The position numbers and the translations under genes are program-made. A stretch of DNA of 64,000 bases from Diplonema papillatum (Eukaryota), in assembly GCA_030068145.1 (NCBI GenBank), contig JAPJBO010000148.1:208409-272408 (forward strand), in the 5' to 3' direction. The notes beneath the pieces were generated by a model that made no database searches, was not told the DNA's origin, and saw only the letters and a list, made by a program, of their open reading frames with translations. How positions within the stretch are numbered: position 1 is the stretch's first letter; each line of letters opens with the position of its first letter. Below are positions 3,996 through 41,800 of the stretch, piece by piece.

Positions 3996-4935
3996 CTGCG
4001 TAGTGACAATGAGTCACGGACGCCTAGCCCTTGCCAGAGTCAGACGACGATGAGAGTAAGGTTTAGATGACACTCCTTAGGGGTCTGACACAAACCGAGC
4101 CAGACCGACGTTCTCGCCGTAGGTCAGGCCAACTCGATGGACGAACCGCAGAGTAAGCTGAAACGAAAGCGTACCTTTCCGTGGGTCCCGACGGCCGCCA
4201 TCTCCGGGTCGGTCTCGAGAATCGGCACTCTTTCCTCGACGAACTTGCCTTCGTACGTTGGCATCAGCTGTTTTGGTTTTGGGTGAACGTTCGCTTGATT
4301 GTAGCCCGCAAACCGCCCCACCAGCCAATAGCACGCCACTTGCACTAAGTCACGGATCGCTGGCGGTACTGTTTGTGCCGGTCACGTCTTCAGTGTTCCG
4401 GTGTATCGGAATCATTGTCCCTTTTCATCACTGGCGTTGTGGCGAGGTGGCAAGTTTTGCAGGGAGTGACTTACGACCTCGCGGGGGTCTGCTCTCGACT
4501 TTTGGGAAATTGTCAGTGGCTCGCATCAAGATCCATTGATCGAGCCGTCTTTTCAGAGGGTTTTATAGTCTCCGGGTGACCGTTGTCTGATGAATTTAGC
4601 ATCAATCGGGGTAAATGATCTTAGCACCGCCATTTTCCCATTCTACCCGGATCGACTCGATCGATAATGGTCAGCGAGCAAGCCAATCATTGTCGAAACG
4701 ATGAGTCGAACAGCAGCCGGGGAGATTCGATTTTCAAACGACGCTGTGCGAGGCTCGTTCTCGGACCGAGGGTTTGGAACACCACACCAGTGAATTCAGC
4801 TGCAGGACGGGTTTTGAGCTTTGGTATACATACACCTACGTGTGTAGATGCTGAGCATACTACTCGAGCACCGGATGCTGCATACGCGTCTTCGTGGTTG
4901 TGGGTACTCACCCACCTCGTAGGTATGCATGGCAT

Positions 4936-5184
4936 TGGGAACTTTTTAAGTACACGGACCACACGGATCAGCATGCACTTTTCTCACGGGCTAGGTTACT
5001 TAATGACGTCATCATCGCCTGCCATTGCATCATCAAGGTCGAGTACTTGCGGTGTAAACGGGGGTAGGTGATCTGGCGAGTCTGATTCAATGTCCGAGTC
5101 CAAGAGCGAGCAGGCACGCTCGGTTCCACCTTTCGAGAGCACGGGTGTGCCTGAGGCCGTCGGGCGCCTTTGCGATTTACCTAT
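4936..5184 (-). mobile_element. Solo LTR-like unit (X+R repeat) homologous to the terminal repeats of the 29560-31692 element; flanked by a 7-bp duplication 'tatgcat'
   Basis: It interrupts one copy of the 210-bp repeat. Flanks read ...ggtatgcat|insert|…acctatgcat|agcacc. It contains the X segment 'aagtaca(c/t)g(a/g)accaca(c/t)gga(t/t)(c/t)agcatgcac' and the R segment that encodes a conserved C-terminal peptide '…QVLDLDDAMAGDDDVIK*'. Confidence 0.5.
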
Positions 5185-5325
5185 GCATAGCACCTCGGTG
5201 TACATGCTAGCTGCTACACGGCACGTAGGTATGGTATACATACCACCTACAGCCTGTATAGCTAAGTAGTATCCTCGTTGCTCGTACGTATGCACTGCGT
5301 TGGCGATGGGGAAAAGCGTGCAGAC

Positions 5326-5654
5326 CTTGACAACGGTGTGGAGCGGCATGCTGAGGTTCGTGCAGTATTCTGGCTTCGACTCGACGAGGTAAGCGTAAAT
5401 GACGCGCAGAACCGCTTGGTGGGAAATGATGAGAAGCGGCTTCTTGGACCGCTCGAGCTCCATGATGACGGGCTCGAGCCGAGCCACGAGATCGTGGTAG
5501 CTCTCGCCGTGCGGGTAGCGGTACCAGTACTTGTTCTTCTTCCGCTTCTCGAACTCAACCGTCGCCTGCTCTTGGATCTCTTCGTACGTCAACCCGTCAT
5601 ACACGCCCGCGTCGATCTCCTCGAGTGCCCGCCAGTACACAGTCGGGAAGCTCC
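5326..5654 (-). CDS. Internal/3' exon of 6-phosphofructo-2-kinase/fructose-2,6-bisphosphatase (histidine-phosphatase domain: WRALEEIDAGV…RYPHGESYHDLVARLEPVIMELERSKKPLLIISHQAVLRVIYAYL…PLHTVVK)
   Basis: Strong motif-level match to the PFKFB bisphosphatase domain. There is a candidate AG acceptor (…tatacaaccacag|GGAGC) at ~5655 and a candidate GT donor (AAG|gtctgc) at ~5325. The ORF-track 'M' at 5640 is a GTG. Confidence 0.55.
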
Positions 5655-7175: not shown

Positions 7176-8384
7176 TATTGTGTGGGGCATTTCCTTCCAA
7201 GCTGGGGCATATAAAACAAACCCCCGAAGTTTCGGAGCACACCTGTCATCGGGACGGCAGTCATCCTTGTCCGGAGCAATGTGCTGCACCACACTTCCAA
7301 ACCGTCCGGGGCGTTGCTTCTGAGCCAGTGCGCGAGTTCTTGTGCGTAGTTTTCCCCTGTGTTATGGTTTAGACGTGGTAATGAAACGCGCGCTACGCTC
7401 TCACGATTTCTTTCTTTTCGGGAGGTCTGCGGGCGTGAGCGTGGGCGTGCACGCGCGTGCCAAAAAAATCCCGTGTTTAGACTGTTCCTTGTAAAGGGGG
7501 GGGTAGAATAATAACACTGTGTTATTAGCGTTATTCGTCGATTTGTCGAATAATAAAAAAAGTTCCGGGTAGCCGAACAGTAGCAGGATCAACTAGTGGT
7601 AGTGTTTTTAGACAACCAGACGTGTGTCAATAACTGTTATTATTCGGTTCATTTAGTAGGCGGCCGGGTTTTTGAAGTCTCCATTTGACTTGTGAGGCGG
7701 GGGGGGACGTTGTTATTGGTGCAGGTTTTGAGGGATAAGGAAAAGGTAAGAAATCTGTTCGCGGTGGCCTCAGCTGGTCTGGTAGTTCGTGCTACCTCCG
7801 TTCTTCTACACTCGTTTTCTTCTCTACTCACTACTGTACGTACTCTTTCACTCTTTTACCCTCTTTGGTTTGTGCGCACTAGCGGCTTTTCACCTGATTT
7901 GGTGAGTTGCTTTTAGTACGCTGTCAACTACTAGTTTTTAATACCAACAATGCATTGTTAACACAAAAAAGACTCCTGCGGCCGACACCACGAACACATT
8001 CGCAATGAAGTGTCTGCAGACAGGACTGCGGTGTGAGTCTGGTTTGTCAGGCGGCTGTTCGTAGCTCGTCACAGCCAGGACCACCCGTGCTACTAGAGCA
8101 CAGGCGAATCCGTCACGGGGAGAAGGCCCCTACAACCGTGTCTGAGCAATCAGTTAAAAAACTCAGGGCACTCGCCCTGATTGTGACTGCGACTCGCTAG
8201 GCAGCACTGACTTGTCTTCTTTTTACGGTGGCAATCTGCGAAGTAAACTCCGCAGAGTACAGTGGACATGGGGTTGCCGTGTGCAGCACCAATGGTTGAA
8301 GTACCAAAAGGAAAAAGAGTGCGAGGAAGTAATCCTGCGTGCTGAGGGCAGCAAGTCGCGTTACGCGAAGTACCCTACTGGAAT

Positions 8385-10190: not shown

Positions 10191-10600
10191 GAAATTGGGT
10201 AGCCCAGTGCAGTGTTAACCCTCGGTAAGCTCGTCTACGCTCACTCGATCACGCAGACAAACCAAGATGGAGAGTCAGCCACACAGGAAAAACAGTGGTT
10301 CAGGGTGAAAGGGATCTCTTTGCGAGAAAACAACAATACACGGGTGGTCTGGGCAAGAAGCTTTGACGTCAACGCGACACCTTTTGCTGCTCTGAACATC
10401 CCCGATACCCCTCAGACAGCATCTGGGGTACAGCCTGAAGCAAAGAAGCTGATGACTCTCTATCGTGGTTTGTCTGCGTGATCGAGTGAACACAGACGAG
10501 CTTACCGAGGTTTGACACTGCCTGGGCTACTCAACTTTTCGTCAATGAAAGTCCCTGAAAAAAAGTTTTTTAGCCAACCCCATTAAATGGGGTGTGAGGC
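10140..10600. repeat. Foldback structure: ~125-bp inverted arms (10140-10265 and 10468-10600) around a ~200-bp loop
   Basis: 'ggctaaaaaactttttttcgcc…ggtaagctcgtctacgctcactcgatcacgcagacaaacc' is mirrored by 'ggtttgtctgcgtgatcgagtgaacacagacgagcttaccgagg…ggcgaaagaatattttttagcc'. Confidence 0.7.
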
Positions 10601-10649
10601 GAAAGAATATTTTTTAGCCACGCAGGAAAAACACTGGGTTCAAACATAC

Positions 10650-11556
10650 CGAAGTCGGTCAGGCCGGAGTCGCCACCGATGCGGCCGAGGAGATTGAACT
10701 CGGACTGCCCGTGGCGGGAGAGGAAGATTGGCTGCATCGAGAGGTTGACGTTCATGAGGAAGTTGCAAACCCGGCACGGTAGGTACCCGTGCACCTTGTT
10801 GAGGACCAGGTCGCTGCCGCCGTTCTCCATCTTGATGAACGGCGAATCCGCACTGAGCGGCTCCTGGGCTTTGCGGTAGTACTCGGCCCTCCGATCGAAG
10901 TCTTCCGACGCCTCTTCCAACGACGCGAAATCGGAGTACGAGCTTGAGCACTTGAGGGTCATGTCCTTGTAGTTCGCCAGTCTGTCTTTGTTGCTCTCGT
11001 CCACCTCCAGAAACAGTATCCGGTCGCCGTCGAGCACGGTCGACAGCTTCTTGTAGATCAAATCCCTGCGCTTCTGCTGGACGTTCTGCCCGTCCATGAT
11101 CCCCACGTTGCCCCCTTGCCGCAGCCACTCGATCATATCGTCGATCGCGTTTTCCACGACTTGGTCCCGGATCTTGCTGTTCTCCTCGTTTCCGTGGTCG
11201 AAGAACTCAGGGCTGTGCTTCAGCACCTTGCCCTCCTGCTTCCGCCGGTAGCCTCGCACTTGGAACACGCAGGTTTTGAGTCCAAGCCAGCTGAGGAAGC
11301 GCATGATTCGGCGCGCGATGTAGCTTTTTCCTCTACCGGGGAGACCGACTGTCACGATCACGAAGGGCCTGCCCGTGAAGCGCGTGGCTTCGAACCCGGA
11401 AGTCGCGACGGGTCCGATGATGCCGGTCTGCGGCGGCGAGCGCTCGGCTTTGTGCCCGTTGGTCACCTCCACGTTCGCGATGTTCTCGCCGTACCGAGTC
11501 GCGTCGATGGTCACCGAGGTCTCCTCCGTCGAGATCATCGTCCTCTCTCCCCCCAT
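10650..11556 (-). CDS. 5' exon of 6-phosphofructo-2-kinase/fructose-2,6-bisphosphatase (P-loop kinase domain GRPFVIVTVGLPGRGKSYIARR… through the start of the phosphatase domain LSRHGQSEFNLLGRIGGDSGLT)
   Basis: Motif-level match to the PFKFB kinase domain. Candidate start ATGs lie at 11556 and 11538. A candidate GT donor (gacttcG|gtatgtt) lies at ~10649. The ORF then runs into the foldback arm without homology. Confidence 0.6.
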
Positions 11557-11974
11557 CCCGCCCGCGGTCTCTCCCTCACGCGCACGCACACAATGCTCAC
11601 TCACGCCCGCCAGGCACGTGTGCGCCCCGGTTCCCTTTTTCAGATTTTGTTTTCCTTTCTCTCCTTTCTTCTGTGCGTGCGTGTGGAATTCAATGATGGG
11701 CACGTGTCCAATTGCTGTTGACACGGAAACCTTCTCCACTTCGGCCTTCAATGTTCTCCATTGAATATTCGCTACTACAACCAAGATCTGCACTCATCCA
11801 CGCTCCATCGAGGCTCACGCCAACGACTTCGCGGGTGGACCACGCCCTCCTACGCAGTATAGCCCAGGTTTTCAGCTACTTTACGTTACGGCTGAAGCTC
11901 CTGTCGGCTGCTCGTGGTGGCCACGCGCTGTTCGGAACTGTAGCCTCGATTGGTTTAGGCTTCCTGCTTTGTGG

Positions 11975-13385: not shown

Positions 13386-14306
13386 CGGGTGGAAACCGTT
13401 GAGCGTTATGAACGTTTACGTTCACTCAATGTGTGAGCGATACACGATGTGTTAGTAAACGTTGGCACACGTTGTGGCACGTATTACGACCCTCACCACC
13501 GCCTCGCTAGGCGTCCGACATGACGCATTCAAAACATGACAGCAGGAATAATATGCGTACCTAGCCCCCCCCGTGCATAAGATGGATAGCCAAACCCCCT
13601 TGATTAAGATGGATAACGGGCGAGAATGCCAATCCGTCTTAAACACGGGGGTGAGGTACCCCTGTGCAAAGTGACTACACTGTAGTCTACAGTGCCCCCG
13701 TGTTTAAGATGGATACCCCGCTTGATTAAGATGGATACCGCCAAAACCCGAGTTTTTTATCCATCTTATGCACGGGGGGGGCTAGGTAGCTTAGTTTAAG
13801 ATTCAAAAAAGATAGCACTTCCAGGAAAACGGAGACGACCTTACGGCGTGAAGAGTACAGAAGACGTGGAGTCGAAATCGAAGAACAAGCCTGGTTACTG
13901 GAAAGTATCCGACTAGGACACTTAGGACCTAACTCCAAAAAGCACAAGTTGGGCTTCAAAATCGCCCGAAAGTGCTTCCAAATAAGTCCTTGGCTCGCAA
14001 AATGCCCCTAAACTACCAGAGAAAGCTCGCTCAGGACTTTTTACCGGTTGTGTTTGCGTGTCTTGCTCGTGTAGGGGTAGCCCCGCATGACCTCACGGCT
14101 GTTCAACACGTGGTTCGGTAGTTACAGCACTGGGATCCCTTCGGTTCTTTGCCTGGCAGCTTTTGTCGATCATTTCCTTCCCAGCTGGCGCTTATGTAAA
14201 AATACTCGAGGGGCTGCCTTGTGCTTACTTCGAAGGAGGCTAGAAGGGGAGAAACAATACAACTACAAAGGGATGACGTTTTTGGAATACCGACGAAAAT
14301 GGTGGG

Positions 14307-14480
14307 GGGGGATTGCAAGAACGTGCTTGGAATGGGTATGTGCTCAACACCGCACTGGTCCCGTCTGCGCCGTGTTTCGGTCCTTTAAGCCACGGACACA
14401 TAAGGCGGACCATCATCAGCGTGGAACCTGAGTGTCTGCAGACAGGACTGCGGTGTGAGTCTGGTTAGAGGGGGGGGGGT
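14307..14480 (+). repeat. Copy of the ~170-bp interspersed repeat family
   Basis: Same as 8385-8547. Confidence 0.65.
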
Positions 14481-14654
14481 ACCCACCCACCCCCCAGAAA
14501 TCCGAGAATTTTTTTTTACCTACCAATTTTCCCCCGCGCAGCGGGGAATTTTTTTTTTTTTGGGGCATCTTTTCTGGGGGATTTCTTGGCCCGCGCAGCG
14601 GGGAATTTTTTTTGAGGTTTTTTTTTGGACCCGTGTTAAGATCATCCCAAACCA

Positions 14655-15138
14655 TTATGCGCAACTATGCGCAACGACCCGAAAGTATGCGGAACAGCCC
14701 AAACAACTATGCGCAACTATGCGGAACGACCCGAAAGTATGCGGATCAGCCCAAACGACTATGCGCAACTACGCGGAACAACCTGAAACTATGCGGAAAA
14801 GCCCAAACAACTATGCGCAACTATGCGGAACAACCTGAAACTATGCGGAACAGCCCAAACAACTATGCGCAACTATGCGCAACCGCCCAAACAACTATGC
14901 GCAACTATGCGCAACTATGCGGAACGACCCGAAAGTATGCGGATCAGCCCAAACGACTATGCGCAACTACGCGGAACAACCTGAAACTATGCGGAACAGC
15001 CCAAACAACTATGCGCAACTATGCGCAACTATGCGGAAAGCCCAAACAACTATGCGCAACTATGCGCAACTATGCGCAACTATGCGGAACGACCCCAAAG
15101 TATGCGGAACAGCCCAAACAACTATGCGCAACTATGCG
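14655..15138 (+). repeat. Satellite array with an 11-bp subunit (AACTATGCGCA / AACTATGCGGA…) organised in ~55-bp higher-order units
   Basis: Visible periodicity; the ORFs translate to 'MRNYAQLCATMRN…' repeats. Confidence 0.85.
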
Positions 15139-15288
15139 GAATGCTTTGTGCGCTTCACTCGGTGACAATGATCCGATCACTGAAATGAACGCGAAAGGAA
15201 GAAAATTAAACGAATTGCACTTACGATGGGGTAACCCCCCGAGATAGCCGCTGAATGGTGAGAGAAACAGGCTAGCCCAGGAGGTCAC
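15139..15288 (+). repeat. Split direct repeat component 'B' (150 bp); second copy at 15475-15624
   Basis: gaatgctttgtgcgcttcactcggtgaca…gaaaggaagaaaattaaacgaattgcacttacgatggggtaaccccccgagatagccgctgaatggtgagagaaacaggctagcccaggaggtcac occurs twice, at ~95% identity. Confidence 0.85.
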
Positions 15289-15380
15289 GGGGGACGGAGG
15301 GCGGGAACCCAGGTCCCCTGGACCTCGCGCTGAACGCGGACACGAAAAACAAGACAAGCAAACCGGTGTGGGTGGGTGGG

Positions 15381-15474
15381 AACTTTTGTTGTCTGATTCC
15401 TTTGAATCCGGTGCCCAACACCTTCCTAGAGAGTGGTTCGTTACGCGCTTAGCATTCCCACGATGAATCGACAG
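15381..15474 (+). repeat. Split direct repeat component 'A' (93 bp); second copy at 19718-19810
   Basis: aacttttgttgtctgattcctttgaatccggtgcccaacaccttcctagagagtggttcgttacgcgcttagcattcccacgatgaatcgaca is identical at both positions. Confidence 0.85.
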
Positions 15475-15620
15475 AATGCTTTGTGCGCTTCACTCGGTGA
15501 CAGTGATAAGTTCAATGATAATGAACGCGAAAGGAAGAAAATTAAACGAATTGCACTTACGATGGGGTAACCCCCCGAGATAGCCGCTGAATGGTGAGAG
15601 AAACAGGCTAGCCCAGGAGG

Positions 15621-17340
15621 TCACACCACCAAACCCATATCGCCAGTCAGGAACTGCCTAACTGCAAGTGCCATGTCGGCCATATTCTTATCGGAAATTG
15701 CCGATAACGGAACCCGTGACGGAAGGTCAGCAGGATTCCCGGCGCTTTTTACCCAGCGCACAGATAAGGAAATGTTCATGTGGCGCAGGCGTGTGAGCCC
15801 GTTCACCACGGCATCGTTCAAAGTCTGCGATCGCAGACATGCCCCTTTCCGAGCAACACCCTGCACCGTCGTGTTGTCGACCACGACGGTGACCGTGCCG
15901 CCCGCGTACTTGTCAGGCACTGCCGACACACAAAGTTCAAATGCAAGGGCCTCCAGCTCGTTGATGTGAAGGCCCTTTTCTTTCCTGGACCACCGCGAGC
16001 CCAGAACTTCGATCGCGTTGGTGGCGACGTCAACCAGCACGCCGCCCCATCCCTCGAGACTTGCGTCCACAAACACGGTGAGCGACGGCACCCGGGCCGC
16101 CACTGGCATTCTTCGCTTCTCCAACACCGCGCGAACCCAGCCGTCGAGTAGCCGCTGCACACTACCCGAGAGGCGAACCGTCTGGTCGACGGCCTTCTCG
16201 CCCCGGTTCAGCGCATTCGTCAACCGGCGAAGAAACTTCAAGGCGAAGTAGAACTCGCCGACGAAAACACCCACGATGGCCGACGCGTGCAGCAACCGAC
16301 CACCCAGCGTCTCCAGACCGGACGCGGACATCGCACCCTTGCGCACCTCTACCAGATCCCGTGCCAATTTCTTCGACAACCTTGCCGAAATGCCGACCTT
16401 CCCGCTCTGGTGGTCCCAGTCCACCCCGATAAACTCGTACCGGGTGCTGGCGGTTCTCGTGTCGGCGTCCTTCCACGTAACCTTCGAACGAGCTGCCAAT
16501 TCGTCGACCTTGCGGGACGCCTCGAGCACGTCTTTCCGGGACCCCGCGTAACGCACGTTGTCGACCCACGTGTGCACCGTCACAGCCGCTGGCACCGCAT
16601 GCACCGTCTTAACGAAATCGGGGTGCCCGGCGATCGTCGAAGTCAACGTGTGCATCAATTCCGGTGCACACGTGTGGCCCATCGGCAGGCGGGTGAGTTC
16701 CCACCAATCGCCTGCGTCGTCCTGGAAGCGAAAGGCATCCCGTGCCCCCCGCGGAACTTCTACGCCGTAAAAACCGCAGCGGAGGTCGCGTGTCGAGCCA
16801 CACTCCGCGTGCACCGCGTCGAGGTACGTGCTGACGTGCTTCAGCGGTACCTGGGCCTCGTAGCCATCCGCCTCGATCGCGTCGTTCGCCTCGTGCGTCC
16901 ACAAAATAAAACGTTGGCGCAGAGCGCCTTCCTTTTCCTCCACCACAGTGAAGGGGACGTTGACCGACCTACCCGGGCCGCTAGCCCGTTGCGCAATGCC
17001 GTTCATCTCCAGCTCCTCCGCATGCTTCGCTTGCAGCCGCGAAACCCGTCGAGAAGAAGACGGCCGCAATTTCGCCACATCGAACGTCCGCCGCCACGTC
17101 TCATCGAACCTGGCCCGCGTCGTCTCGTTCATACGCCCACGCAACAGCCCCACGTTCATGGGTCGCACGTTGTCGACGTGCAACGGCGAAGCCTTCTCGT
17201 CCTCCGTCTTCGGTAGGCGCGTCTGTTTGCCGCGCTTGAACACCGAGTGGTGCTGCCGCATGAACCGTCTCGGATCATCGTGGCCCCGCTTCCGGCCCTT
17301 CACAGGTGTTCGGTCACCTCCGCCGTTCTCAACACGCGCG
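15621..17340 (-). CDS. Reverse transcriptase + RNase H (ORF3 of the YR retrotransposon)
   Basis: The C-terminal ~570 aa of the 959-aa ORF carry RT motifs (FILWTHEANDAI, RLPMGHTCAP, WVDNVRYAG) and the RNase H catalytic residues (D in FVDASLEGWG, E in INELEA, D in VVVDNT, D in NPADLPS). The N-terminal ~390 aa of that ORF are a Gly/Pro-rich alternate frame of the YR gene and are not counted as coding. The stop coincides with the repeat boundary. Confidence 0.75.
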
Positions 17341-18457
17341 CCAGTGCCACCACATCCGACGTGTACCGCACCGTCATTTGAGCCAGCGTCGGGTCGACGT
17401 TGTCGGCGGTGTGTTTCGCCAAGCGCGAAATCAGGTGCTCGGGAAATGGAGCCCCCGCCGCTTTCGCGCACACGAGGTGGTCGACCGCCCCTCGTTTGAT
17501 GCTGTGCGCCGAGTACCGGCACATCCGCGGTTCGCGCGCCCACATCCCGTCGAGCTGCGACGTTGTCACCGGCGTCAGCGGGCTGAAATTCCCTGCGCCA
17601 CGTACCAACGCCGCGATCTCCTCCGTCAACGCCCCGCGAATCACTGCTGTTTTGCTCAGACAATACGGGTTTCTGGAACGCCCCTTCGGAAGCGTTCCCC
17701 AGTCGATGATCACCTCCGTGGTGCTCACCAGCACAAAACACGGGCGCGTCAACAGTCTCACCTCCGCCCAGCGCGACGCCGTCTTCCACGCCACGAACGC
17801 TGCCAAACGCAGGTGCGGCACCTGCCGCCTCGCCCACGAAATCAGCGTCTCCCTCGGGATACCCTCCGCCTGGGACAGGGGGATAGACGCCCCATCCCCA
17901 CGAAGCACCGACGCCAGCACCTTCAACGGCTTGCTGTCCACCCCCATATGGCCAAAAACTGCCGAAAGGAGGCGGGAATACCCCAACATCCCCTGGGGTT
18001 CCACTGACGTTGCCACAACAAAAAGCACAGCCACATCCGGGTTGAGGCCCAGTCCACGCCCACTGGCCCACGCCTGGAACCGGCGCCACATATTGCGCCG
18101 GTCGTCCACCGTAGAACTCGCCCATGCCCGACCAACTGCCTGCTGCAAACGGCGGTGCGCCTCCGCCACCGACACCCCATTCTCCTTGTGTCTCGCCGCA
18201 AGAGCCCGGGAAATCCCCACGCCCGTCTTCGACGCCACCAACTCGTGGATCGCCTGCCCGATGACTGAGGCTGCGCGCGCCGACGGTTTCAGCACGTCTG
18301 CTACCCCGAGCGAGGATGCGGGAAACTGCGAAGAGTTGGTTCTCCCGCTCTCGCGTGAAGGGCCGGTGGTCGGGTTCTGATCGGACCGGTCGCTCGGGAG
18401 AAGATGGTCCGCGTCTAGGGCACGCCGAACGGCCGCCAACACCATCTCGGTCTCCAC
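17300..18457 (-). CDS. Tyrosine recombinase (ORF2 of the YR retrotransposon)
   Basis: Motifs read …AWKTASRWAEV… (R), …YSAHSIKRGAVDHL… (HxxR) and …LAKH…MTVRYTSD (H…Y). The frame differs from ORF1/ORF3 and overlaps the ORF3 start by ~40 nt. Confidence 0.7.
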   Translation of the reverse strand: METEMVLAAVRRALDADHLLPSDRSDQNPTTGPSRESGRTNSSQFPASSLGVADVLKPSARAASVIGQAIHELVASKTGVGISRALAARHKENGVSVAEAHRRLQQAVGRAWASSTVDDRRNMWRRFQAWASGRGLGLNPDVAVLFVVATSVEPQGMLGYSRLLSAVFGHMGVDSKPLKVLASVLRGDGASIPLSQAEGIPRETLISWARRQVPHLRLAAFVAWKTASRWAEVRLLTRPCFVLVSTTEVIIDWGTLPKGRSRNPYCLSKTAVIRGALTEEIAALVRGAGNFSPLTPVTTSQLDGMWAREPRMCRYSAHSIKRGAVDHLVCAKAAGAPFPEHLISRLAKHTADNVDPTLAQMTVRYTSDVVALARVLRTAEVTEHL

Positions 18458-18599
18458 TTCGAGAGGAACTCTGTGGTTGGTGAGGGGGGGCCGGCGGCAC
18501 CGTGACTGCCGCGGGGGTGGGAGGATTGCATAAAAGAGGGGGAGGAAGAATAACTGGCCGTGCAGGGGTAGCCCCGCTTACTTGCCGGGGGAACGCCAG

Positions 18600-19717
18600 T
18601 CACTTCCCCCCGTAACCGTTTCCCTGACCATACCAAGACTTGCCCCCTTTTCCGCCTTTGCCTTTCTTCCAAGCAGGCGTCGCGTTCCACTTTGGCGTCC
18701 TGTTCTTCTCCTTCTCCAGGTCCCCTTTGACCTTCGCCATCAACCGCTCGACCAAGTCGCCGGACTCGGCTTCCATTTCCCGTAGCATCCGGGACCGCGG
18801 GACCTTCTCCACGCACCAACCGTAGTTGAGGCGGACATCCAGCAACAGCTCGTTGCCCAGCCGGACCAGCTCTTCGTTGGCCGACCACCCCGCCGACCCG
18901 GCTGCGACCCCAAGGATCCACGTCTTCAGCTTCTCGAAGCTCGCCTTCAAGAACGCGCCCCCCGGGGCTCCGACGTACCCAGCCACGTACTCCGAATGGA
19001 GGTCGCGAACAAGCCCGTGCGGGTCGGACGCCGCAACATCCGCCCACTCGCGGACATCCTTCAGACTGTACCGCACGGGCAGCGCGTAATGTGCTGCCGC
19101 CCCCTCAAAGGCAGCAGCCGACAGGTTGGCCGCCGGTAGCCCCGAAAGCCGTCCGTGTAGCGAGGCGATCTCCGCCTTCTGCTGCTCCACCACTGCGTAC
19201 AGGTCCTTGACCAACGCGGCTAGGCCCCCGCTCGCGTCCACGGACGCCCCAGCAACAGGGGGCGGAGGGAGAACCGGTGGCGCCACCGGCTCAATGGGAT
19301 CGGCCTCGGCGTCCCTCCGCTCCGCCTCGGCCCACATGCGGCACGCGGGCACGCCTTCCTTCCAGCATCCACTCGCCTTCATCACGCGTCGAAACAATGG
19401 GCCGTTCGTGACCCCGACCTCCGCCAGCACAGCAATGAGCTTCCAAGGCTCCCAGGACTCTACGAAGCCTAAGCCCTCCGAGGCAGCCGCAAACTCGAAA
19501 ACTTCGCACGCAACCTTGCGCGCCAACGCAATGGCGTCTCCGGCACCCCGAAAGAAGAACACGGCCCACCTCTCTAACTCCGGCAGGTTCACGGTGCGGC
19601 GAGGAAGGACGGGTCCTACCGCATCTTCGAACGCACTGCGGATATCCGCCGGCACCGCCAGTGGTCGTCGCCTTTCGGAAGGGGCTTGCTGCCATGTTTT
19701 CTTTAACTTGCGTAACA
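18600..19717 (-). CDS. ORF1 of the YR retrotransposon (gag-like; Ala-rich with a Gly/Lys-rich C-terminal tail)
   Basis: A 370+ aa ORF in the same frame as ORF3, immediately 5' of the YR gene. The protein has normal composition and a coiled-coil-like segment, but no recognisable domain. The start is uncertain; a candidate ATG is at ~19381. Confidence 0.5.
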
Positions 19718-19810
19718 AACTTTTGTTGTCTGATTCCTTTGAATCCGGTGCCCAACACCTTCCTAGAGAGTGGTTCGTTACGCGCTTAGCATTCCCACGA
19801 TGAATCGACA

Positions 19811-20175
19811 ACAGCCCAAACAACTATGCGCAACTATGCGCAACTATGCGGAACTATGCGGAACGACCCCACAGCGCAAAAAGCATTCTCCGCATAGTTG
19901 CGCATAGTTGCGCATACTTTGGGGTCGTTCCGCCTAGTTGCGCATAGTTGCGCATAGTTGTTTGGGCTGTTCCGCATAGTTGCGCATAGTTGCGCATAGT
20001 TGTTTGGGCTGTTCCGCATACTTTGGGGTCGTTCCGCATAGTTGCGCATAGTTGTTTGGGTTGTTCCGTACTTGCGCATAGTTTTCGGGGACAAAAATTG
20101 GACGAAAATTGGACGAAAATTGGACCAAAATTGGACCAAAATTGGACCAAAAAATTGGACCAAAAATGGACCAGT
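19811..20175 (-). repeat. Inverted copy of the 11-bp satellite (TGCGCATAGTT)n, followed by an (AAAATTGGACC)n array
   Basis: Reverse complement of the 14655-15138 satellite, so the YR element sits between oppositely oriented satellite blocks. 20088-20175 is a separate 11-bp repeat. Confidence 0.8.
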
Positions 20176-20929
20176 ATCAGGGGGGGTACCGGCCACGGCC
20201 CCAGGGTGGGACATTGTCCGTCGGTATTCCAAAAACGTCATCCCAAAGTGGGTCTTTTTTGTTAAACGCTTACGCCCGCCACTAAACCCAGATTCACCTG
20301 TGTTTCGCAGCACATTTACCTCCTTTGATCTTTTGCAGCTGGCAGCCTCGTCAAGTATTTCCTACAAACAGGTGCGTATACAAAAAAAAATGAATTGGTT
20401 CGGTGTTCACCTGTCTCTGAAAAGAACCCCCCCCCTTTGGTACAGCCACTCCGTTTTGCTTTACTTTTGTAGTGAAGCCGCAAGGTATGTGTAAAAGGAA
20501 CATTTGGTTGAGGGGGTTGCAAGGACGTGCTTGGGAATGGTTGCGCGGGGGGGGGTGGATTTCTTCGGTCGAGTGGAACAGTGCCGGCAGGCAAAACATC
20601 AGAGACTCGGCGCTATTTGTGGCATCGCGTGCTGAGCAGCACTGGACGAGCCGTGGGGAGAGAGGACGCGTGAAATCGGGAAGAGTGTTACCGTACGCTC
20701 AAAGAATGATGGTGGGCTGCGGCAGGACTTTTTGCGATATCTTCTGCAACGGTCATTGCAAGATACCTTCTTCCCCTCCATTGTTGCAACTGACAGCGGG
20801 TCCAGCATTCTTCCTTCAACGATACGGCAAAAGTTTAGTGAGGAGCTAGGAATCGGAAAGGCATGTAAAATTACGGCGCAAGGTGTGTGTCCCGCCGTTG
20901 GGGGGAAAGCTGAGGTTAATGGGCAGGCA

Positions 20930-21260
20930 GTCCTGTCTGCCGTCCATGCGTGTTTGATGCTAGCATCGACTCTTCTCCGGAGAAGATAAGAGGGGGGGTA
21001 ACCCGTCGACGGTGCTACTGTAGCATCGCAACGGGCTTGGCGCGCAGGGGGAAGTCTCAGTTCGTGTTTAGGCAGGACACTGCCTCTCACGCATGTTTGA
21101 TGCTAGCATCGACTCTTCTCCGGAGAAGATTAAAGGGGGGGTAGCCCGTCGACGGTGATACGACGTCTCGGAGCAAGACAACGCGGGCGAATATTAGCTT
21201 CATGTTTAGACACTGCCTCTCATGCATGCTCGATGCTAGCATCAAGTCTTCTTTCGAAGA
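20930..21260 (+). repeat. Three copies of an ~80-bp repeat family with a palindromic core (…aggcaggacactgcctct…catgcatgtttgatgctagcatcgactcttct…)
   Basis: Other copies lie at 23655-23720, 26825-26880, 38095-38180 (inverted) and 50875-50960. Confidence 0.6.
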
Positions 21261-33273: not shown

Positions 33274-33651
33274 TTAGGTATTCGTCGGATACATTAATCT
33301 TCTAAGATCTGCGATCTTATACGACAAAAAAAAAAAACACCCTGTGAGTGTTCGGTTACATACGGGAGGAAAATGCCGACGTTCTCCAGTCTCCCGCTGC
33401 TCGCGCTCCTGCTTGGTCGGCGGCGCGCCGCGACCGGACCCGCGGCTGGAACTCTTGGCGGATTTGCGCTTCAACGCGGGTTTGCTCGTGAACGCCGACG
33501 GCGCCGCCGGCGGCGGCGGCGGCGGCGGCGACGACGGCTGTTCTCGAGCGCTCCGCCGCTCGCGCTCCTGTTCGGTCGGCGGCACGCCGCGGCCGGACCC
33601 GCGGCTGGAACTCTTGGCGGATTTGCGCTTCAACGCGGGTTTGCTCGCGAA

Positions 33652-33701
<50 letters not shown>

Positions 33702-34851
33702 GCTGTTCTCGAGCCCTCTGCCGCTCGCGCTCCTGTTCGGTCGGCGGCACGCCGCGGCCGGACCAGCGGCTGGAACTCTTGGCGGATCTCAACGCGGGTG
33801 TTTTGCTCGCGAACGCCGGCGGCGGCGGCTCGTCTGAGGCGGCGAAGCCGAAGCCGCCCGGTCTCGGCTGCGGGGGCGGTCGAAACGCCTCGCCGCCACC
33901 CTTCAATTCTGCGAGCGTCCCGCGGAGCTCGGCTGCAGGGGCCGCGCTTCTGCTCGTGCTTCTGCTGCTGATGCGTCCGAACAGCTGCTGTCCGAAGCCG
34001 GCGGGAGCCGACGGCTGCGAAGGCGCGGGAACTGCCAGGAAGTCGGAGGCAGCGGCTGGACTCCCGCCTCCGAGCTGCTCTGCGTAGGAGCCGGCGTTGA
34101 GCTGCGGCGGCGGCGGCTTGCCCCAAGCGAACGGGGGAGCCGTCAGCCGCGAGTACTCCTGCTGCGGCGAGGGCGCCGGCGGCGCTGCCCTGGCAGCGCC
34201 GCCTGCGAAGAACTGCTTGAACATGCCGCCGGGCGGCGGCTGCTGCGCGTGTGCCGGCGGGGGTGCGCTGGACCCCGCAGCCGGAGGCGGCGGCGGCGGC
34301 GGCGGCGGGCCCCCGCCCCCGAAAGCGAACTGCTGCCCGAAGCCGGCGGGAGCCGACGGCTGCGAAGGCGCGGGAACTGCCCGGAAGTCGAAGGCAGCGG
34401 CTGGACTCCCGCCTCCGAGCTGCTCTGCGTAGGAGCCGGCGTTGAGCTGCGGCGGCGGCGGCTTGCCCCAAGCGAACGGGGGAGCCGTCAGCCGCGAGTA
34501 CTCCTGCTGCGGCGAGGGCGCCGGCGGCGCTGCCCTGGCAGCGCCGCCTGCGAAGAACCGCTTGAACATGCCGCCGGGCGGCGGCTGCTGCGCGTGTGCC
34601 GGCGGGGGTGCGCTGGACCCCGCAGCCGGAGGCGGCGGCGGCGGCGGCGGCGCCGGCGCATTGACGCCGGTGTCGTCGGACCATCTCTCCACCCCGGCTT
34701 GGTTGGCTACGGCCCCGCGTCCGCCAGGCTCGGCCTGCTGCGCCGGCTTCTTCTTCTTGGACTTCTGCCCGGACTTCGCCAAGGCCAGCGGCGCTCCCGC
34801 CGCGCTCCGCGGGGCGGGAGCGCCGGCGGCGCCGGAGCCGGACGCGCCCAA
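33274..34851 (-). CDS. Proline/alanine-rich low-complexity repeat protein (MGASGSG… N-terminus; repeated PAGFGQQ / PPFAWGKPPPPQLNAGSYAEQLGGGSPAAA / KPALKRKSAKSSSRGSGRGVPPTEQERE units)
   Basis: A 525-aa ORF. The region contains a perfect ~345-bp tandem duplication (34097-34432 / 34442-34777) and (GCG)n tracts, so all frames are open and the frame choice is uncertain. Confidence 0.3.
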
Positions 34852-36894: not shown

Positions 36895-38228
36895 CTGCGG
36901 GCAAAAAGGTGCAAGGTGACGGGGGGGGACCCGGGAGGAAAACTCAGTTCGATGCTCGAGAAACAATTCCTGCTTCTCGCGCGCAGAAGGCTTCGGTCAG
37001 ATCTATCGGCGAATGCAACACCCGTTGCAACAATTCCTGGGCTGGCCGATTTTCTGGGGTCTCAAAGCTCTATAGACGCACGCAGAACAAAGCAGACACG
37101 CACTGCCCTTACTTTTGTCTTCGTCCCCCCTTGGGTTCCTGCCTCAGTGTGAAAACAACCAGAAGTGCAGGGAAGGGGCGTTCGATGTTCTTCGAGGAAA
37201 CGCGGGAGTTTTGGTTTCCTTCTTTTTCACGTTTACGTTCTTTTCGTCGTCGGCAATTTCGGTTGTTCGAAGAAACGCGGTGTTTCTCATGGGAAGGTGC
37301 CTTTTGGGCCCAGTTGGATAACAATGGTAACTCCATTGCTAATACATGTCCGAAGAATCCAACTCGATTCAACCCCGTGGCCTTAAAACCGCGGGGTCGA
37401 GGTGATCCGGGCTATTGTGTTGCCTGGTCTTGCCAGTGGGTCGGCTCCAAGCATGTAGAGTCGGTAGCACCAAGTGCACCGCGGGGCATCTCGCTATCCA
37501 GTTAGCTGTCACTCCGAAAAATGGATCAGGCGCTTCCTTTGTTTGTGCGCACTTCAAACCTTCAAACCTCGCTTGTTCATCCCACGGGAGTGAGGATAGT
37601 ACGTAGGACCAGCGCATCCCTGATACCTAGGAGGTCGATGGTATGACGTAGGTGCTGGGATACCACCAGCATACCACGATACCCGGATAGGTGCTAGTGG
37701 ATGGCGGGTTGCGAGTACACGCTGCCATCGATCGGTTTTTAGAGTTAAAGTTCGCATGATATTGCGGGGGTTTAGGGTCTCCGTGTGACCGTTGCTAAAT
37801 GGGTTCTACGAGGGGGGCTTTATATGGTTATGGGTTGTGTATTTGGTGCACGCTTTCGCTATGGGTTGTCAGCTGGAGGTAGGCGTGGGTCCATGATGAA
37901 AGCTGTCGTTGCTTACAGTTTTAAGGCAAGTGCGGTGCTTGGGGACGGCGTGATATTGGGCGTAAGATAAACGTCGGGAGGATCGCATTTTGTGTTGGCA
38001 AATTGCATTTGTCGGACCATGACACAAAAAAGACGCCCCCACTTTGGGAGCCGTACACTCCCCTCTTTACAACTTTCTATTTTCTATTTTGCATCCCTTG
38101 GGTTCCTAGACGACATCTTCCTCGAAGAAAACTTGATGCTAGCATCAACCATGCATGAGAGGCAGTGCTCTGCCTAAACATTAAACTAAACGATTTTCCC
38201 CTCGAGTGTGCAGCCGGCCAGGGCATAC
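36895..38228 (-). other. ~1.33-kb intron of the VIT-vWA gene, filled with interspersed-repeat fragments
   Basis: It contains copies of the 'gggagtgaggatagta' repeat, the 'tttagagttaaagttcgc' repeat and the 80-bp palindromic-core repeat (38095-38180). Confidence 0.5.
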
Positions 38229-39746
38229 CTTGTCGCCTTTGACCATGGCGTAGATGACCTTGCGCTCGTCGTTGTAGAGGGCGGGTATCAGCGCCGGGGC
38301 CTGCTCGAACCCGCTGTTGAAGAGCTCGCGCTCGCGCTTGTTCGCGATGCCCGACCAGTCGACCACCGCCTCGGCGAGGACAGGCAGCGCGGTGCGGCGG
38401 AGCTGGCGCCCGATCTGCGCGCTCCACTCCGACTTCTTGCCGGGCTTCAGCGCCTCGAACCGGCCTCTGCCGCACTCGGCGAGGGCGTGCAGCGGGTGGT
38501 GCATGCTCGCGTCGCCGACGGCGAAGGTGAATACCCGGCCGCGGTTGCTGTGGCGGACCAGCGAGAGGCACGTCGCGAGCTGCGAGCCGAGGAGCCCGTC
38601 TGAAAACAGGAAGACGCTCGCGTTCGTCTTCCGCAGCGAGAACAGCCCGCGCAGGGCGCGCTGCACGTTCGTCGCGCCCCAGTCCGGCGTGAGCTGCCGC
38701 ACGACCCCGGCGGCCTCGACGTTCGCCGCCGTCGCGCGCACGCAGGCCGGGAACACCGGCTCGCTGACGGAGCCGAACGGCACGACGTTGAAGTACGTGT
38801 CCGTGCCTTTGATCGCCTCCAGCGCCAGCAGCACCGCGCGCTGCGCGGCGGCCATCGCGCCGCCCTGCGCCATCGAAGCGGAGCAGTCGACGACGAGGTA
38901 CAGCTCGTTTCTTTCGGCGCGCGGGCCCCGCGCCTCGTTCTCGCTCTCGGGTTCGGCGACTTTAAGGTCGAAAAGGGGCTCTTCCTTGGTGGGGCAGAGG
39001 CAGATCATGGTGGCCCGGTGGCCTTCGCTGCTCTCTTCGACCCACATCCGGGGGACGGTCAGGTCCGAGAGATACACGGACAGCACGAAGTCCTTCGCCG
39101 TGACGTCCGTCTCCGGGGCGAGCCTCACCGCCGCGTTCTGCGCCGACCGCTTCTGCAACGTTTCGTGGGACGCGTCGAGCTTGACGATGTCCCAAGGCAT
39201 CGCGACCCCGACTTCAATGTCAACCGGGAGCATAGAATGATCCGTGCTTCCCTCAACACGCTTCGTCTTCGACGGGTGGACCTTCGCCGGGAGGACCCAG
39301 TTGATGCAGCCTTTCCCGCAGTCCACCTCAAGCTCCGTCAGGTACGTGATCTTCACGATGACAGTCGTTTTTGGAGGCAGGTTCCCGACGGTGACGCTGA
39401 AGACATCCGGCGACTCCGTCTCCTCTTCCAGCAGGTACGCCCCTTTGCCGGCGGCTACCGCCTTCTTGTACTCGCGCCTCGCCTCTTCCTTTTCCTTCGT
39501 GACGCCGACGATGTGTTTGTCGTTGATGAACGCTTCGAACGCGCACACCGCGGCTCCCTTTTGCAGCGGGAAGATGTACGTCGCTTCTACGACGGCGGAG
39601 CTCGCGTTGAAGTATTCTTGGAATATCATGACTTCGCCTGTGTGTGGGTCGGAATCACGCCACCACCACCCACTCCCCTTTCTTCTCTCGGTCAATTGTA
39701 TCCACCTCAGACCACCGTGTGGAATCGAGTTGGTGTCTTCAACCAT
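38229..39746 (-). CDS. VIT-vWA (inter-alpha-trypsin-inhibitor-like) protein, exon 1 (VIT domain …EATYIFPLQKGAAVCAFEAFINDKHIVGVTKEKEEARREY…; vWA domain …LYLVVDCSASM…)
   Basis: ATG at 39744-39746. The VIT and vWA (DxSxS MIDAS) motifs are recognisable. The donor (GACAAG|gtatgc) lies at ~38228. Confidence 0.7.
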
Positions 39747-40402
39747 GTATTCGCAGTGGAACTACCATGTGTATCTGAGCCCAAACGGCATCTAGTGTAC
39801 CCCGTACACAGGTCCGACAACCCTATAGCTTGTCAAACTGAGTCCGGAAGGTCGGAGACTGTGTCCAACGACGGTGCGGGTCGTGACGGAAATCGGAAAG
39901 CCCCATCGCACCGGGGAGATAGCGATGTGTTACGTAACGCACATAGGAGATGGTAACTGCTACGCAGCAGCAAGATTATTGGGTCATAACTCGTTGCGTT
40001 ATGGTAAGGTTTTAGCGGTAAGGTATAGTATGCGTATCGTATCTGTAGTAGTGGCAGTACGTGTGCATGTGTGTGCGGGTCTTTGATGCTTATTGCGACT
40101 ATTCGACTTATCCTGGCAATTTTGTGTATGTGCGCACCAGCGGAAGTCACCTGCTTTGGGTGAGGTACATGTTCTTAGGTCATAACTCGTTGCGTAATGG
40201 TAAGGTTTTAGCGGTAAGGTCTAGTATGCGTATCGTGTCTGTAAGCTGCAGTAGCGGCAGTACGTGTGCTTGTGTGTGCATGTATTTGTTGCGTATTGCC
40301 GTAATTTTGTATGTGCGCACCAGCGGAACTCACCTGGTTTGGTAAGTTACCTGTAAGTTTAGTACGCTGCTAACTACCGTTTTTAGTACGGACACTGCTT
40401 TG

Positions 40403-41800
40403 CTAACACATGGAAAGCACACCGATCATGTCGAGGAGCTTCGCCCGCACGGACACCGACCGCAAGGGCACCTGCAGGTCGCCGTTGGTGACGAGCCCGA
40501 TGACGGGCTCCTTGACGGGCGGCGGCTTGAGGTCCTCTGTGAACGTCAACTTGCCCTTGCCCGTCAGCGCCGCGGGCTTGCGGGACGGCTTGGGCGCCTT
40601 GCCCGAGGTCGGGCGCCAGGCGGCGCTGTCGCCGAGCCAGGGGCCCGGCCGGCCGCGCCTGACTTCGACGAGGTACTTCATCCGCTGCTGCGACGCTCGG
40701 TAGACGCAGTACTCGTCGTCCTTGAAGTCGGTCGGGGCCGCCGCGTCGTGCTTCGTTCCATGCACGGAGTCGAATCCCTCCGGCGCGTCGCCGACCAACT
40801 CCCGGCTGGTGTGCTGCACACTCCCCAGCGCGACTTCGCAGGCGAAAACGAAGCGCCTCCCCTCCGCGTCCGGCTGCGCGTACTTTATCGCGGCGTCGAT
40901 GCTGGAACCGAAGTAAATCCCTTTCCCCAGCATCCCGGCGTCCCTGCGCCTCCTCACGAACTGGGGGACCTGCAGTCCCCTTGACAGGACCCCCGCCACG
41001 TTCCCGGCGGGGGTGCCGTGCAACAGCAGCGCCTTCGGCTCCAGCAAACGCTCGAAGTCGTCTACCTCCGATGACTTGTTCACGCTGAATATGCTGCCGA
41101 TGTGCACCGGCTCGCTTCGGTCCGCGCTGCTCTTGAGGATGGTTTCCTCGATGTCCTTGAACAGGTCGGAGTCGCGGGGGACTGCGCTGACGTGCGCGTC
41201 GAGGGCCTCGTACTGCAGCGCGGCGCCGGCCGTGAATATGTTGCTGCACGCCGTCTCGCCCGTCGAGAACGCGTCCCGCAGCACGCCGAGCAAGTCCTGC
41301 TGCCGGGCGACCCAGCCGTCAATGCCCGCCGCGGATCCTGCCAGCGACTCCAAACTCTCTTCGGGCTTCACGCCAAGCTTCGCAATGTACCGGCACGACA
41401 GGGCCGGGACCTTCTCGAGGTATCGTGGCCTGTCCTTCCCGATCCCGTAGTTCGTCTCGTCGATTGCCTGTAGGAAGCTGGCGGTAGTACGCACTGGAGA
41501 CAGTGTTGCACTGGCAGGAAATCGTTCTGTGACAGCAACAGGCATTCGAGAGTGCCTGGGGCCAAGGGTGCGACTGCCAACATGGAAGGATTTTAGTGTA
41601 CATGTGCAAGGGGGAGGAAGTTGGATCCTGGCAAAGCGTCCGTCGGAGTGAGTGAAGCGCCAACCCAATCCGCTCTGTCGAAACTCTACACGCTCGTGTT
41701 CACCGCAAGCGCAAGGGTACACAACGCACTTGAGTTCACAAAGCAAGAAATGAAAGGCAAACCGAAGCGGTTTCAAAAAGACAGGTTTCGGCTTCGGCAA
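40403..41800 (-). CDS. Poly(ADP-ribose) polymerase catalytic-domain protein (…LLHGTPAGNVAGVLSRGLQVPQ…GKGIYFGSSIDAAIKYAQ…FVFACEVALG…)
   Basis: The PARP catalytic signature (H-G-[ST]…GKGIYFA…Y…E) is preceded by a helical regulatory-like region. The N-terminal extent is uncertain; this may continue from the 41736-42797 ORF via an intron. Confidence 0.65.
   Translation of the reverse strand: MPKPKPVFLKPLRFAFHFLLCELKCVVYPCACGEHERVEFRQSGLGWRFTHSDGRFARIQLPPPCTCTLKSFHVGSRTLGPRHSRMPVAVTERFPASATLSPVRTTASFLQAIDETNYGIGKDRPRYLEKVPALSCRYIAKLGVKPEESLESLAGSAAGIDGWVARQQDLLGVLRDAFSTGETACSNIFTAGAALQYEALDAHVSAVPRDSDLFKDIEETILKSSADRSEPVHIGSIFSVNKSSEVDDFERLLEPKALLLHGTPAGNVAGVLSRGLQVPQFVRRRRDAGMLGKGIYFGSSIDAAIKYAQPDAEGRRFVFACEVALGSVQHTSRELVGDAPEGFDSVHGTKHDAAAPTDFKDDEYCVYRASQQRMKYLVEVRRGRPGPWLGDSAAWRPTSGKAPKPSRKPAALTGKGKLTFTEDLKPPPVKEPVIGLVTNGDLQVPLRSVSVRAKLLDMIGVLSMC

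Follow-up and report, generated by a model that had tools for sequence, protein, structure and literature searches.

Which kind of mobile element occupies the minus strand between positions 15139 and 19810 of a 64,000-nucleotide (nt) stretch of the Diplonema papillatum genome (contig JAPJBO010000148.1; the whole stretch is hereafter called the window), and does it belong to a group described so far from kinetoplastids? A sequence-only reading had proposed a compact tyrosine-recombinase retrotransposon in the style of VIPER and TATE, rather than in the DIRS or Ngaro arrangement. Our analysis arrives at the same affiliation, because the trees of the reverse transcriptase (RT) and of the recombinase, the order of the open reading frames (ORFs) and the split direct repeats all agree. 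We therefore regard it as very likely that the element is a VIPER-like tyrosine-recombinase retrotransposon of D. papillatum, within the DIRS order. Judged from its sequence, this copy is full-length, and it is probably autonomous and recently amplified. Among tyrosine-recombinase retrotransposons, the VIPER-like branch is the least studied; VIPER of trypanosomatids is reportedly the subject of Lorenzi 2006.

Anatomy of the element and its termini

The limits of the element were set by its repeat boundaries and its ORFs. In sense order, its parts are as follows.

15139..19810, minus strand: the complete element, 4,672 bp, very likely a VIPER-like retrotransposon (repeat boundaries and ORFs)
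19718..19810, minus strand: A1, the 5' terminal repeat, 93 nt, 100% identical to A2
18600..19382, minus strand: ORF1, 260 amino acids from the first in-frame ATG (ORF list; the start fits gene model DIPPA_07601)
17300..18445, minus strand: ORF2, tyrosine recombinase, 381 amino acids from the ATG (AlphaFold model, curated alignment and tree)
15621..17261, minus strand: ORF3, RT and RNase H, 546 amino acids (identity to KAJ9463909.1, profile matches, alignment and phylogeny)
15474..15624, minus strand: B1, internal 3' repeat of 151 nt (repeat analysis)
15381..15473, minus strand: A2, internal 5' repeat of 93 nt, identical to A1 throughout
15289..15380, minus strand: unique spacer between A2 and B2, 92 nt, holding a pyrimidine-rich tract
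15139..15288, minus strand: B2, the 3' terminal repeat, 150 nt (repeat analysis)

Read along the minus strand (19810→15139), the layout is A1(93)–ORFs–B1(151)–A2(93)–spacer(92)–B2(150). The three ORFs lie on one strand in the order ORF1, tyrosine recombinase and RT-RNase H (19382→18600, 18445→17300 and 17261→15621), with gaps of 154 nt between ORF1 and ORF2 and of 38 nt between ORF2 and ORF3. ORF1 and ORF3 share a reading frame, and the recombinase is read in another. The sequence-only reading had given this order of genes for 15139-19810, with the recombinase gene upstream of RT-RNase H and in a different frame, and we recovered it at the same coordinates on the minus strand; both repeats also lay exactly where that reading had placed them, in the arrangement A1–ORFs–B1-A2-(spacer)-B2. 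It had further noted that a methyltransferase domain is absent. A Pfam scan of the ORFs agreed, found no protease, DDE integrase or other extra domain either, and returned a single weak match, to RT_RNaseH. Furthermore, a repeat analysis of positions 14000-21000 found no inverted terminal repeats or long terminal repeats (LTRs) belonging to the element, and the long inverted repeat pairs near it are flanking satellite blocks paired with each other. The GC content of the element is 61.8%, against 53.8% in the remaining window.

The repeats are specific to these positions, as 38-nt probes of each repeat match these copies only within the 64-kb window (0 matches expected by chance). B1 and B2 agree fully over 105 nt; in the outer 45 nt their identity is 89%, with one indel of 1 nt. 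The stop codon of ORF3 falls inside the first 4 nt of B1, and the B1|A2 junction reproduces in sequence the joined ends of the element. The sole difference between B1 and B2 is a 17-nt patch located 30-46 nt from the outer end (15168-15184 vs 15503-15519), whose B2 version is a near-palindrome of the form 8-1-8 on the sense strand, CAGTGATC-G-GATCATTG. It might serve as a protein-binding site or reflect a heritable difference between B copies. Under the model of replication given below, B regions present twice in the RNA would need no homogenising, which offers an explanation for the patch. The 92-nt spacer between A2 and B2 had been regarded as an oddity, but such a spacer is normal in this group. 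In SIRE/VIPER of Trypanosoma cruzi about 30 bp separate A2 and B2, and the A2-spacer-B2 unit there is SIRE (PMC6681497); a relative of the element on a metagenomic contig (L001, described below) has 25 nt. The spacer is thus a feature of the family, and the 92 nt in the window fold no better than shuffled sequence (z=-0.48).

The first ORF had been called gag-like. The name fits its position, and ORF1 has no Pfam match, no CCHC motif and no significant fold match. Its frame is open upstream through A1 and beyond the 5' end of the element. The ATG at 19382 coincides with the start of exon 1 of a fused gene model, DIPPA_07601 (100% identity over 248 residues), and the length of 260 amino acids that it gives is near that of a 262-residue paralogue (P0139). 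Two homologues were found in the databases, both from D. papillatum. The C-terminal ~160 amino acids of ORF1 are conserved and helical and end in a Lys/Gly-rich tail. The AlphaFold model is all-helical but unreliable, with a predicted local distance difference test score (pLDDT) of 50, and a Foldseek search with it gave nothing below E=1.

Reverse transcriptase, recombinase and family affiliation

To place the two enzymes, we used the curated RT and recombinase alignments of Ribeiro 2019 (PMC6681497, supplements 16 and 18), a study that treats the VIPER-like subgroup of the DIRS order; the RT alignment has 197 columns. Diplonema sequences were placed with MAFFT --add --keeplength, and neighbour-joining trees were computed with 500 bootstraps. 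In the RT tree, a bipartition with 100% bootstrap support unites the window sequence and 13 relatives with seven VIPER/TATE sequences of kinetoplastids, so that ORF3 falls in with these and apart from DIRS, PAT and Ngaro. The window RT has a mean identity of 37.6% to kinetoplastid VIPER-like RTs, the best being 45.4% (Crithidia VIPER CfaC1_21_a), and its identity to DIRS, PAT, Ngaro, Gypsy and hepadnavirus sequences peaks at 12-17% per group. In a search of 5.8 billion proteins, VIPER of Trypanosoma grayi was matched at E=1.8e-67 and that of T. cruzi at E=8.5e-48.

Single-sequence domain profiles were of less use. The Pfam match of ORF3 to RT_RNaseH was weak (E=8e-4), and neither Phage_integrase nor RVT was matched in the three ORFs; of the domains that the sequence-only reading had named for a profile search, one was therefore recovered, weakly, and the others were not. 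A profile of the 17-member ORF3 family did match RT structures in the PDB, namely the 'enzymatic polyprotein' of entry 8r0s (E=1.6e-14), which we take to be the caulimovirus (cauliflower mosaic virus, CaMV) RT, Ty3 (E=1e-9) and HIV-1 RT (E=7e-7). RT motifs A (D159) and B (RLPMG) are recognisable in the alignment, and motif C reads W-V-D-N. The D-N of motif C is common to VIPER/TATE sequences of T. grayi, T. cruzi, Crithidia and Trypanosoma theileri, young T. cruzi copies included, and W-V-D-N is therefore a trait of the clade and not damage. ORF3 also carries the clade-specific motifs PFTVVEEK, RFIxW and W-I/V-D-N, and its RNase H catalytic residues D399, E437, D462 and D512 (DEDD) are invariant in the alignment.

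The identity of ORF2 as a tyrosine recombinase rests on structure comparison and on the curated alignment, since sequence-profile searches found nothing: no Pfam family was matched by ORF2 or by its 19 homologues, and neither a recombinase profile search of the PDB nor hhalign against Cre gave a match. An AlphaFold model built on the family alignment reached a mean pLDDT of 79.5. When it was compared with the PDB by Foldseek, the top 19 matches were all Cre or Cre-derived recombinases such as Tre (E=2.8e-5, probability 1.0), with both domains covered, followed by the lambda, HP1 and P2 integrases and an integron integrase. The recombinase ORF had been given as 18457-17300; its end holds, and 18457 is a GTG start (385 amino acids), the ATG lying at 18445. 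In the numbering of the 385-residue GTG-start product, the putative catalytic residues are R229, K258, H318, K321/R322, H349 and Y365. Invariant or nearly so in the family alignment are R229 (AWKTASRW), K258 (PKG), S319-K321-R322 (AHSIKRGA), H349 (LAKH) and Y365 (RY). The catalytic Arg, His, His and Tyr are thus present, and the column of the second Arg has K321 followed by R322, identical to the 'AHSIKRGA' of T. cruzi VIPER.

Within the recombinases, ORF2 is in register with the VIPER proteins of T. cruzi, T. theileri, Crithidia and Leptomonas (PMC6681497, supplement 18). It shares with them the motifs AWxTASRW, AHSIKRGA, LAKH and RY and has the VIPER-specific deletion of 18 columns. In the tree, ORF2 and its relatives join the VIPER-type recombinases with 94% bootstrap support, and the TATE-type proteins form a separate clade (99%). 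Mean identity of ORF2 is 34.5% to the VIPER type (40% to T. cruzi) vs 15.4% to the TATE type.

Host, copies, insertion sites and alternative readings

The ORF3 product is residue-for-residue identical to KAJ9463909.1, the hypothetical protein DIPPA_03289 of D. papillatum. The surrounding GT-AG introns had suggested a host other than a kinetoplastid, and this is borne out, as the D. papillatum genome has canonical introns together with repeat-rich intergenic regions (PMC10161547). The expected host range of VIPER-like elements is Kinetoplastea, and the host here belongs to the class Diplonemea. Diplonemids, which are marine, are the sister class of kinetoplastids within Euglenozoa; the element does sit in another eukaryotic lineage, as had been supposed, but the phylogenetic jump is small.

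The element belongs to a family of many near-identical copies. Dozens of D. papillatum paralogues of ORF3 with 54-99% identity appeared in the search of 5.8 billion proteins. The cluster formed around ORF3 at 90% identity holds 24 distinct sequences, and its seven full-length variants correspond to 13 accessions on different contigs. Full-length ORF3 is therefore present at at least 13 D. papillatum loci, which differ by 1-4 of 546 residues (>=99.3% identity). The variation is concentrated at four sites (N45S, M86L, V220A and A388T) that occur in nearly all combinations (P0001, P0125, P0127, P0129-P0131 and P0136), a pattern that suggests recombination or gene conversion among copies, not tree-like divergence. 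An annotated 381-residue D. papillatum protein (P0128), the recombinase of other copies, is 99.2% identical to ORF2. Given the near-identical ORF3 and recombinase copies and the perfect identity of A1 and A2, the family appears to be young and is probably still active.

Relatives were also found elsewhere. The RT encoded by L001, a locus on a 1.3-Mb contig of a long-read metagenome assembly in the ENA, is 51% identical to the window RT, and its layout is A1 (181 nt)–ORF1–recombinase–RT-RH–B1 (109 nt)–A2–25 nt–B2. Two further loci (L003 and L004) keep the recombinase upstream of RT-RNase H, and a third (L002) has only the C-terminal part of a recombinase ahead of it; all three are truncated or rearranged. 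The position of the recombinase ahead of RT-RNase H is therefore retained in L001, L003 and L004, and the split repeats in L001 as well. None of the outcomes that the sequence-only reading had named as refuting it was observed: the RT does not fall inside DIRS or Ngaro, relatives do not depart from the ORF order, and the recombinase has its catalytic residues in the form typical of VIPER. L004 also contains a 401-nt inverted copy (4748-5148 and 7779-8178, 99.5% identity) of the 5' part of the recombinase gene between B1 and B2; this locus is a rearranged copy, or else its termini are built differently. L004 is a more distant relative. RT relatives occur in transcriptome-derived protein sets of two other diplonemids, Lacrimia lanifica and Flectonema neradi, and in metagenomes of the Joint Genome Institute (JGI). 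A scan of bacterial and archaeal species-representative genomes, aimed at the contigs of the 'Oceanobacter' metagenome-assembled genome, found no RT relatives.

The element lies in a satellite array, and the repeats around it and beside its relatives are as follows.

14646..15138: satellite with a 10-nt unit, CAACTATGCG, in a 52-nt higher-order repeat, abutting B2
19811..19864: the same CAACTATGCG satellite in the same orientation, 54 nt, abutting A1
19865..19889, minus strand: a ~22-nt (22-25) remnant resembling the B end, AGAATGCTTTTTGCGCT, inverted, at the point where the satellite flips
19889..20083: the same CAACTATGCG satellite in inverted orientation (repeat analysis)
20089-20173: a separate 11-nt satellite (repeat analysis)
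L001 3708-3860 and 8867-9102: arrays beside the relative
L002 7237-9817: array beside the relative
L003 1-3561 and 7236-10677: arrays beside the relative
L004 1-4746: array beside the relative

The sequence-only reading had placed the element between oppositely oriented blocks of an 11-bp satellite. The satellite does flip, at 19889, but its unit is 10 nt and its orientation is the same on both sides of the element. No target-site duplication was found at the window copy. Relative to the satellite consensus, 2 nt are seemingly missing on the A1 side, with an ambiguity of 0-2 nt. In L001 the insertion point lies precisely at the border of two units of a (CTGTGTATA)n array, with neither duplication nor loss, and this clean interruption is what conservative integration by a recombinase predicts. 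Neither in the window nor in L001 could we reconstruct a simple core common to the target and the B|A junction. The sequence AGAATGCTTTTTGCGCT differs from the outer end of B2 at 2 of 17 nt (0.29 matches expected at <=3 mismatches), and it joins the satellite at the unit position of the element's own B2 end (…CTATGCGG^). It may be the remnant of an earlier insertion in the opposite orientation, which would mean two independent insertions at one unit position. All five copies examined, from four families, adjoin tandem arrays, with periods of 10/52 nt in the window, 9 nt in L001, 83 nt in both L002 and L003, and 606 nt in L004; in the window, tandem repeats make up 7.6% of the sequence outside the element. 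It is conceivable, though we lean against it, that VIPER-like elements of diplonemids integrate site-specifically into short-period tandem repeats or seed such repeats. The block formed by satellite and element is also flanked by a G-rich 25-nt motif, GGGGGGGTACC…CCCCAG, a 76% direct repeat at 14473-14497 and 20180-20204, which may be due to chance.

How far can the copy be taken for an intact member of the VIPER type? Several points weigh against this view. Motif C of the RT has W-V-D-N in place of Y-x-D-D, a change of doubtful compatibility with catalysis in other RTs, and the recombinase has a Lys where the canonical second catalytic Arg would stand, with an Arg one position on. In the long open frame of ORF1 the first ATG comes at codon ~143 and recognisable Gag features are absent, and the two B repeats differ in their 17-nt patch. 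A perfectly conservative exchange is not reconstructable at the window site, because 2 nt were apparently lost. The trees are neighbour-joining trees on short trimmed alignments, not maximum likelihood or Bayesian ones; repeats and flanks of the D. papillatum family were read at the window copy alone, and activity is deduced purely from sequence. Some of these features (the missing ATG at the head of the frame, the B patch and the V-D-N of motif C) would also suit a copy that is non-autonomous, a dead relic or nearing domestication, its near-identical copies being due to segmental duplication or gene conversion. The combinatorial pattern at the four ORF3 sites, suggestive of recombination or gene conversion, and the truncated or rearranged state of L002, L003 and L004 fit such a history too, and domestication of VIPER has been reported in trypanosomatids (PMC5146736). 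Nevertheless, we consider it improbable, given that all three ORFs are intact with their catalytic motifs conserved, that A1 and A2 match perfectly, and that full-length ORF3 is kept at >=99.3% identity at at least 13 loci on different contigs. Moreover, the ATG at 19382 is the annotated start of ORF1 and yields a protein about as long as P0139, and the V-D-N motif is clade-wide.

Assignment to a neighbouring lineage finds still less room. More than 60 Diplonema ORFs were called 'TATE'-like in the genome paper (PMC10161547), the RTs of VIPER and TATE form one clade whose inner branching is weakly supported, and weak RT relatives such as P0103 adjoin TATE sequences in the tree. An origin of the element in the TATE lineage rather than in VIPER proper is nonetheless very improbable, as its recombinase is closer to the VIPER type than to the TATE type (34.5% vs 15.4% identity), groups with the former at 94% while TATE keeps its own clade at 99%, and has AHSIKRGA and the 18-column deletion of VIPER instead of the VRKGA of TATE; the best RT identity is likewise to a VIPER sequence, CfaC1_21_a. 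That an element of the Ngaro, PAT or DIRS1 type, or an LTR retrotransposon, has been misread as VIPER-like deserves next to no credence. Split repeats of the form A1…B1A2B2 do occur in Ngaro and PAT (PMC6681497), but the recombinase here precedes RT-RNase H, the RT is 13-17% identical to those groups, and they fall outside the VIPER-like bipartition supported at 100%. Pfam found no methyltransferase, protease or DDE integrase, and the termini are direct split repeats rather than the inverted terminal repeats or LTRs of a DIRS1 or LTR element. On ORF order, RT tree, domain content and termini, we rejected membership in Ngaro, PAT or DIRS1 as well as an LTR element.

The rest of the window holds ordinary eukaryotic genes, including a tubulin-cofactor-B-like gene. 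Contamination and an assembly artefact were rejected on account of these host genes around the element, the identity of ORF3 to a D. papillatum protein and the independent occurrence of the layout in L001. On the minus strand, a histidine-phosphatase (FBPase-2-type) ORF (4996-5640) and a 6-phosphofructo-2-kinase ORF (10570-11793) lie 4.9 kb apart and probably form a single bifunctional PFK2/FBPase2 gene with a long intron between its two parts. Also on the minus strand, the region 38181-42797 encodes a PARP catalytic domain (40403-41800) and, after it, VIT and von Willebrand A domains (38181-39746); it looks like a vault-PARP-like gene, in which the gap of ~650 nt is presumably an intron. An isolated 120-nt fragment (52768-52887, minus strand) matches positions 2832-2984 of eukaryotic large subunit (LSU) rRNA with 54 bits, which fits the ~3,600 scattered pieces of 28S rRNA in the D. 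papillatum genome (PMC10161547). Positions 33394-34652, inside long GC-rich ORFs (33274-34851) without a Pfam match, are taken up by large tandem repeats whose periods are 165 and 345 nt and whose identity is 91-98%.

Proposed mechanism, significance and comparison with known systems

The mechanism proposed for the element is taken by analogy from the model for split-direct-repeat tyrosine-recombinase elements, reportedly established by Poulter and Goodwin. In this model, the genomic RNA would start inside A1 and end inside B2, lacking the outermost parts of both, and would be copied into cDNA by the RT-RNase H of ORF3. The internal B1|A2 junction, as a store of the joined termini, would template or bridge the missing ends and so yield a closed circular double-stranded DNA. 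The ORF2 recombinase, with its Cre-like fold, would then integrate the circle conservatively, without a target-site duplication, and ORF1 would presumably act as a structural or nucleic-acid-binding protein. The sequence data directly show the anatomy, the enzymes with their catalytic motifs, the family affiliation, the many near-identical copies and insertions free of target-site duplication, whereas the transcript ends, the circle and the part played by ORF1 are predictions of the model. We further suggest that recombination between the two B|A junctions of the circle could release an A-spacer-B mini-circle; as a resolvable mini-circle, the A2-spacer-B2 module may explain SIRE-like non-autonomous derivatives and their possible origin.

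According to the literature, VIPER-like elements do not occur outside kinetoplastids (PMC3783388, PMC6681497, PMC12278014). In the genome paper on Diplonema, the 'TATE'-like ORFs are listed under DNA transposons and the analysis of transposable elements is deferred (PMC10161547), and no later paper describing VIPER-like elements of Diplonema was found in the literature searched. The present element extends this rare group from kinetoplastids to diplonemids, an extension of host range that was expected but undocumented. Given diverged D. papillatum subfamilies and the expressed relatives in Lacrimia and Flectonema, the group is at least as old as the ancestor that kinetoplastids and diplonemids share. 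Marine metagenome bins contain VIPER/TATE-like sequences that had been assigned to a kinetoplastid without a sequenced genome (PMC6681497, supplement 6), and diplonemids are a likely source of these. Furthermore, a candidate active element in a culturable, genetically tractable diplonemid makes the model of a circular intermediate and recombinase-mediated integration approachable by experiment. The classification of VIPER-like elements is unchanged by the finding.

Among known systems, Cre of phage P1 is the best structural match of the ORF2 model, and the positions of the catalytic Arg, His, His/Trp and Tyr align. Identity is, however, about 15%, and the column of Cre R292 holds a Lys here; the likeness is one of fold only and not of membership. 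DIRS-1 of Dictyostelium resembles the element in combining RT-RNase H with a tyrosine recombinase, in its supposed circular cDNA and in an internal copy of the joined termini. It differs in having inverted terminal repeats and an internal complementary region, in the order RT-RH-methyltransferase followed by the recombinase, and in its distant RT. Ngaro and PAT-like elements come closer in their A1–internal–B1A2B2 split repeats and in integration by a tyrosine recombinase free of target-site duplication, but their recombinase lies downstream of RT-RNase H, PAT has a methyltransferase in addition, and their RTs (13-17% identity) stand outside the VIPER-like clade.

TATE (telomere-associated transposable element), found in Leishmania braziliensis and further kinetoplastids, matches the element in its overall ORF order and in having split repeats, and its RT belongs to the same clade. 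TATE elements are larger, though, and their recombinase, about 15% identical to ORF2, is a much longer protein with an N-terminal extension, which has VRKGA and no HS. The closest system is VIPER (vestigial interposed retroelement) of T. cruzi, other trypanosomatids and Bodo saltans. The host here is a diplonemid and not a kinetoplastid, ORF1 is shorter (260 amino acids) and lacks the CCHC box that T. cruzi has, the repeats are shorter (A, 93 vs 173 bp; B, 150 vs 219 bp) and the spacer is longer (92 nt vs about 30 nt). At 35-45% identity for the RT and 35-40% for the recombinase, the two are clearly diverged. Nevertheless, they have in common the order of a gag-like gene, a recombinase in its own frame and RT-RNase H, the A1…B1-A2-B2 split repeats, in which a short unique sequence parts A2 from B2, the lack of a methyltransferase, the W-I/V-D-N of RT motif C and the recombinase motifs AWxTASRW, AHSIKRGA, LAKH and RY. 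They are also alike in size (4.67 kb here vs about 4.5 kb), and both their RTs and their recombinases fall in the same clade.

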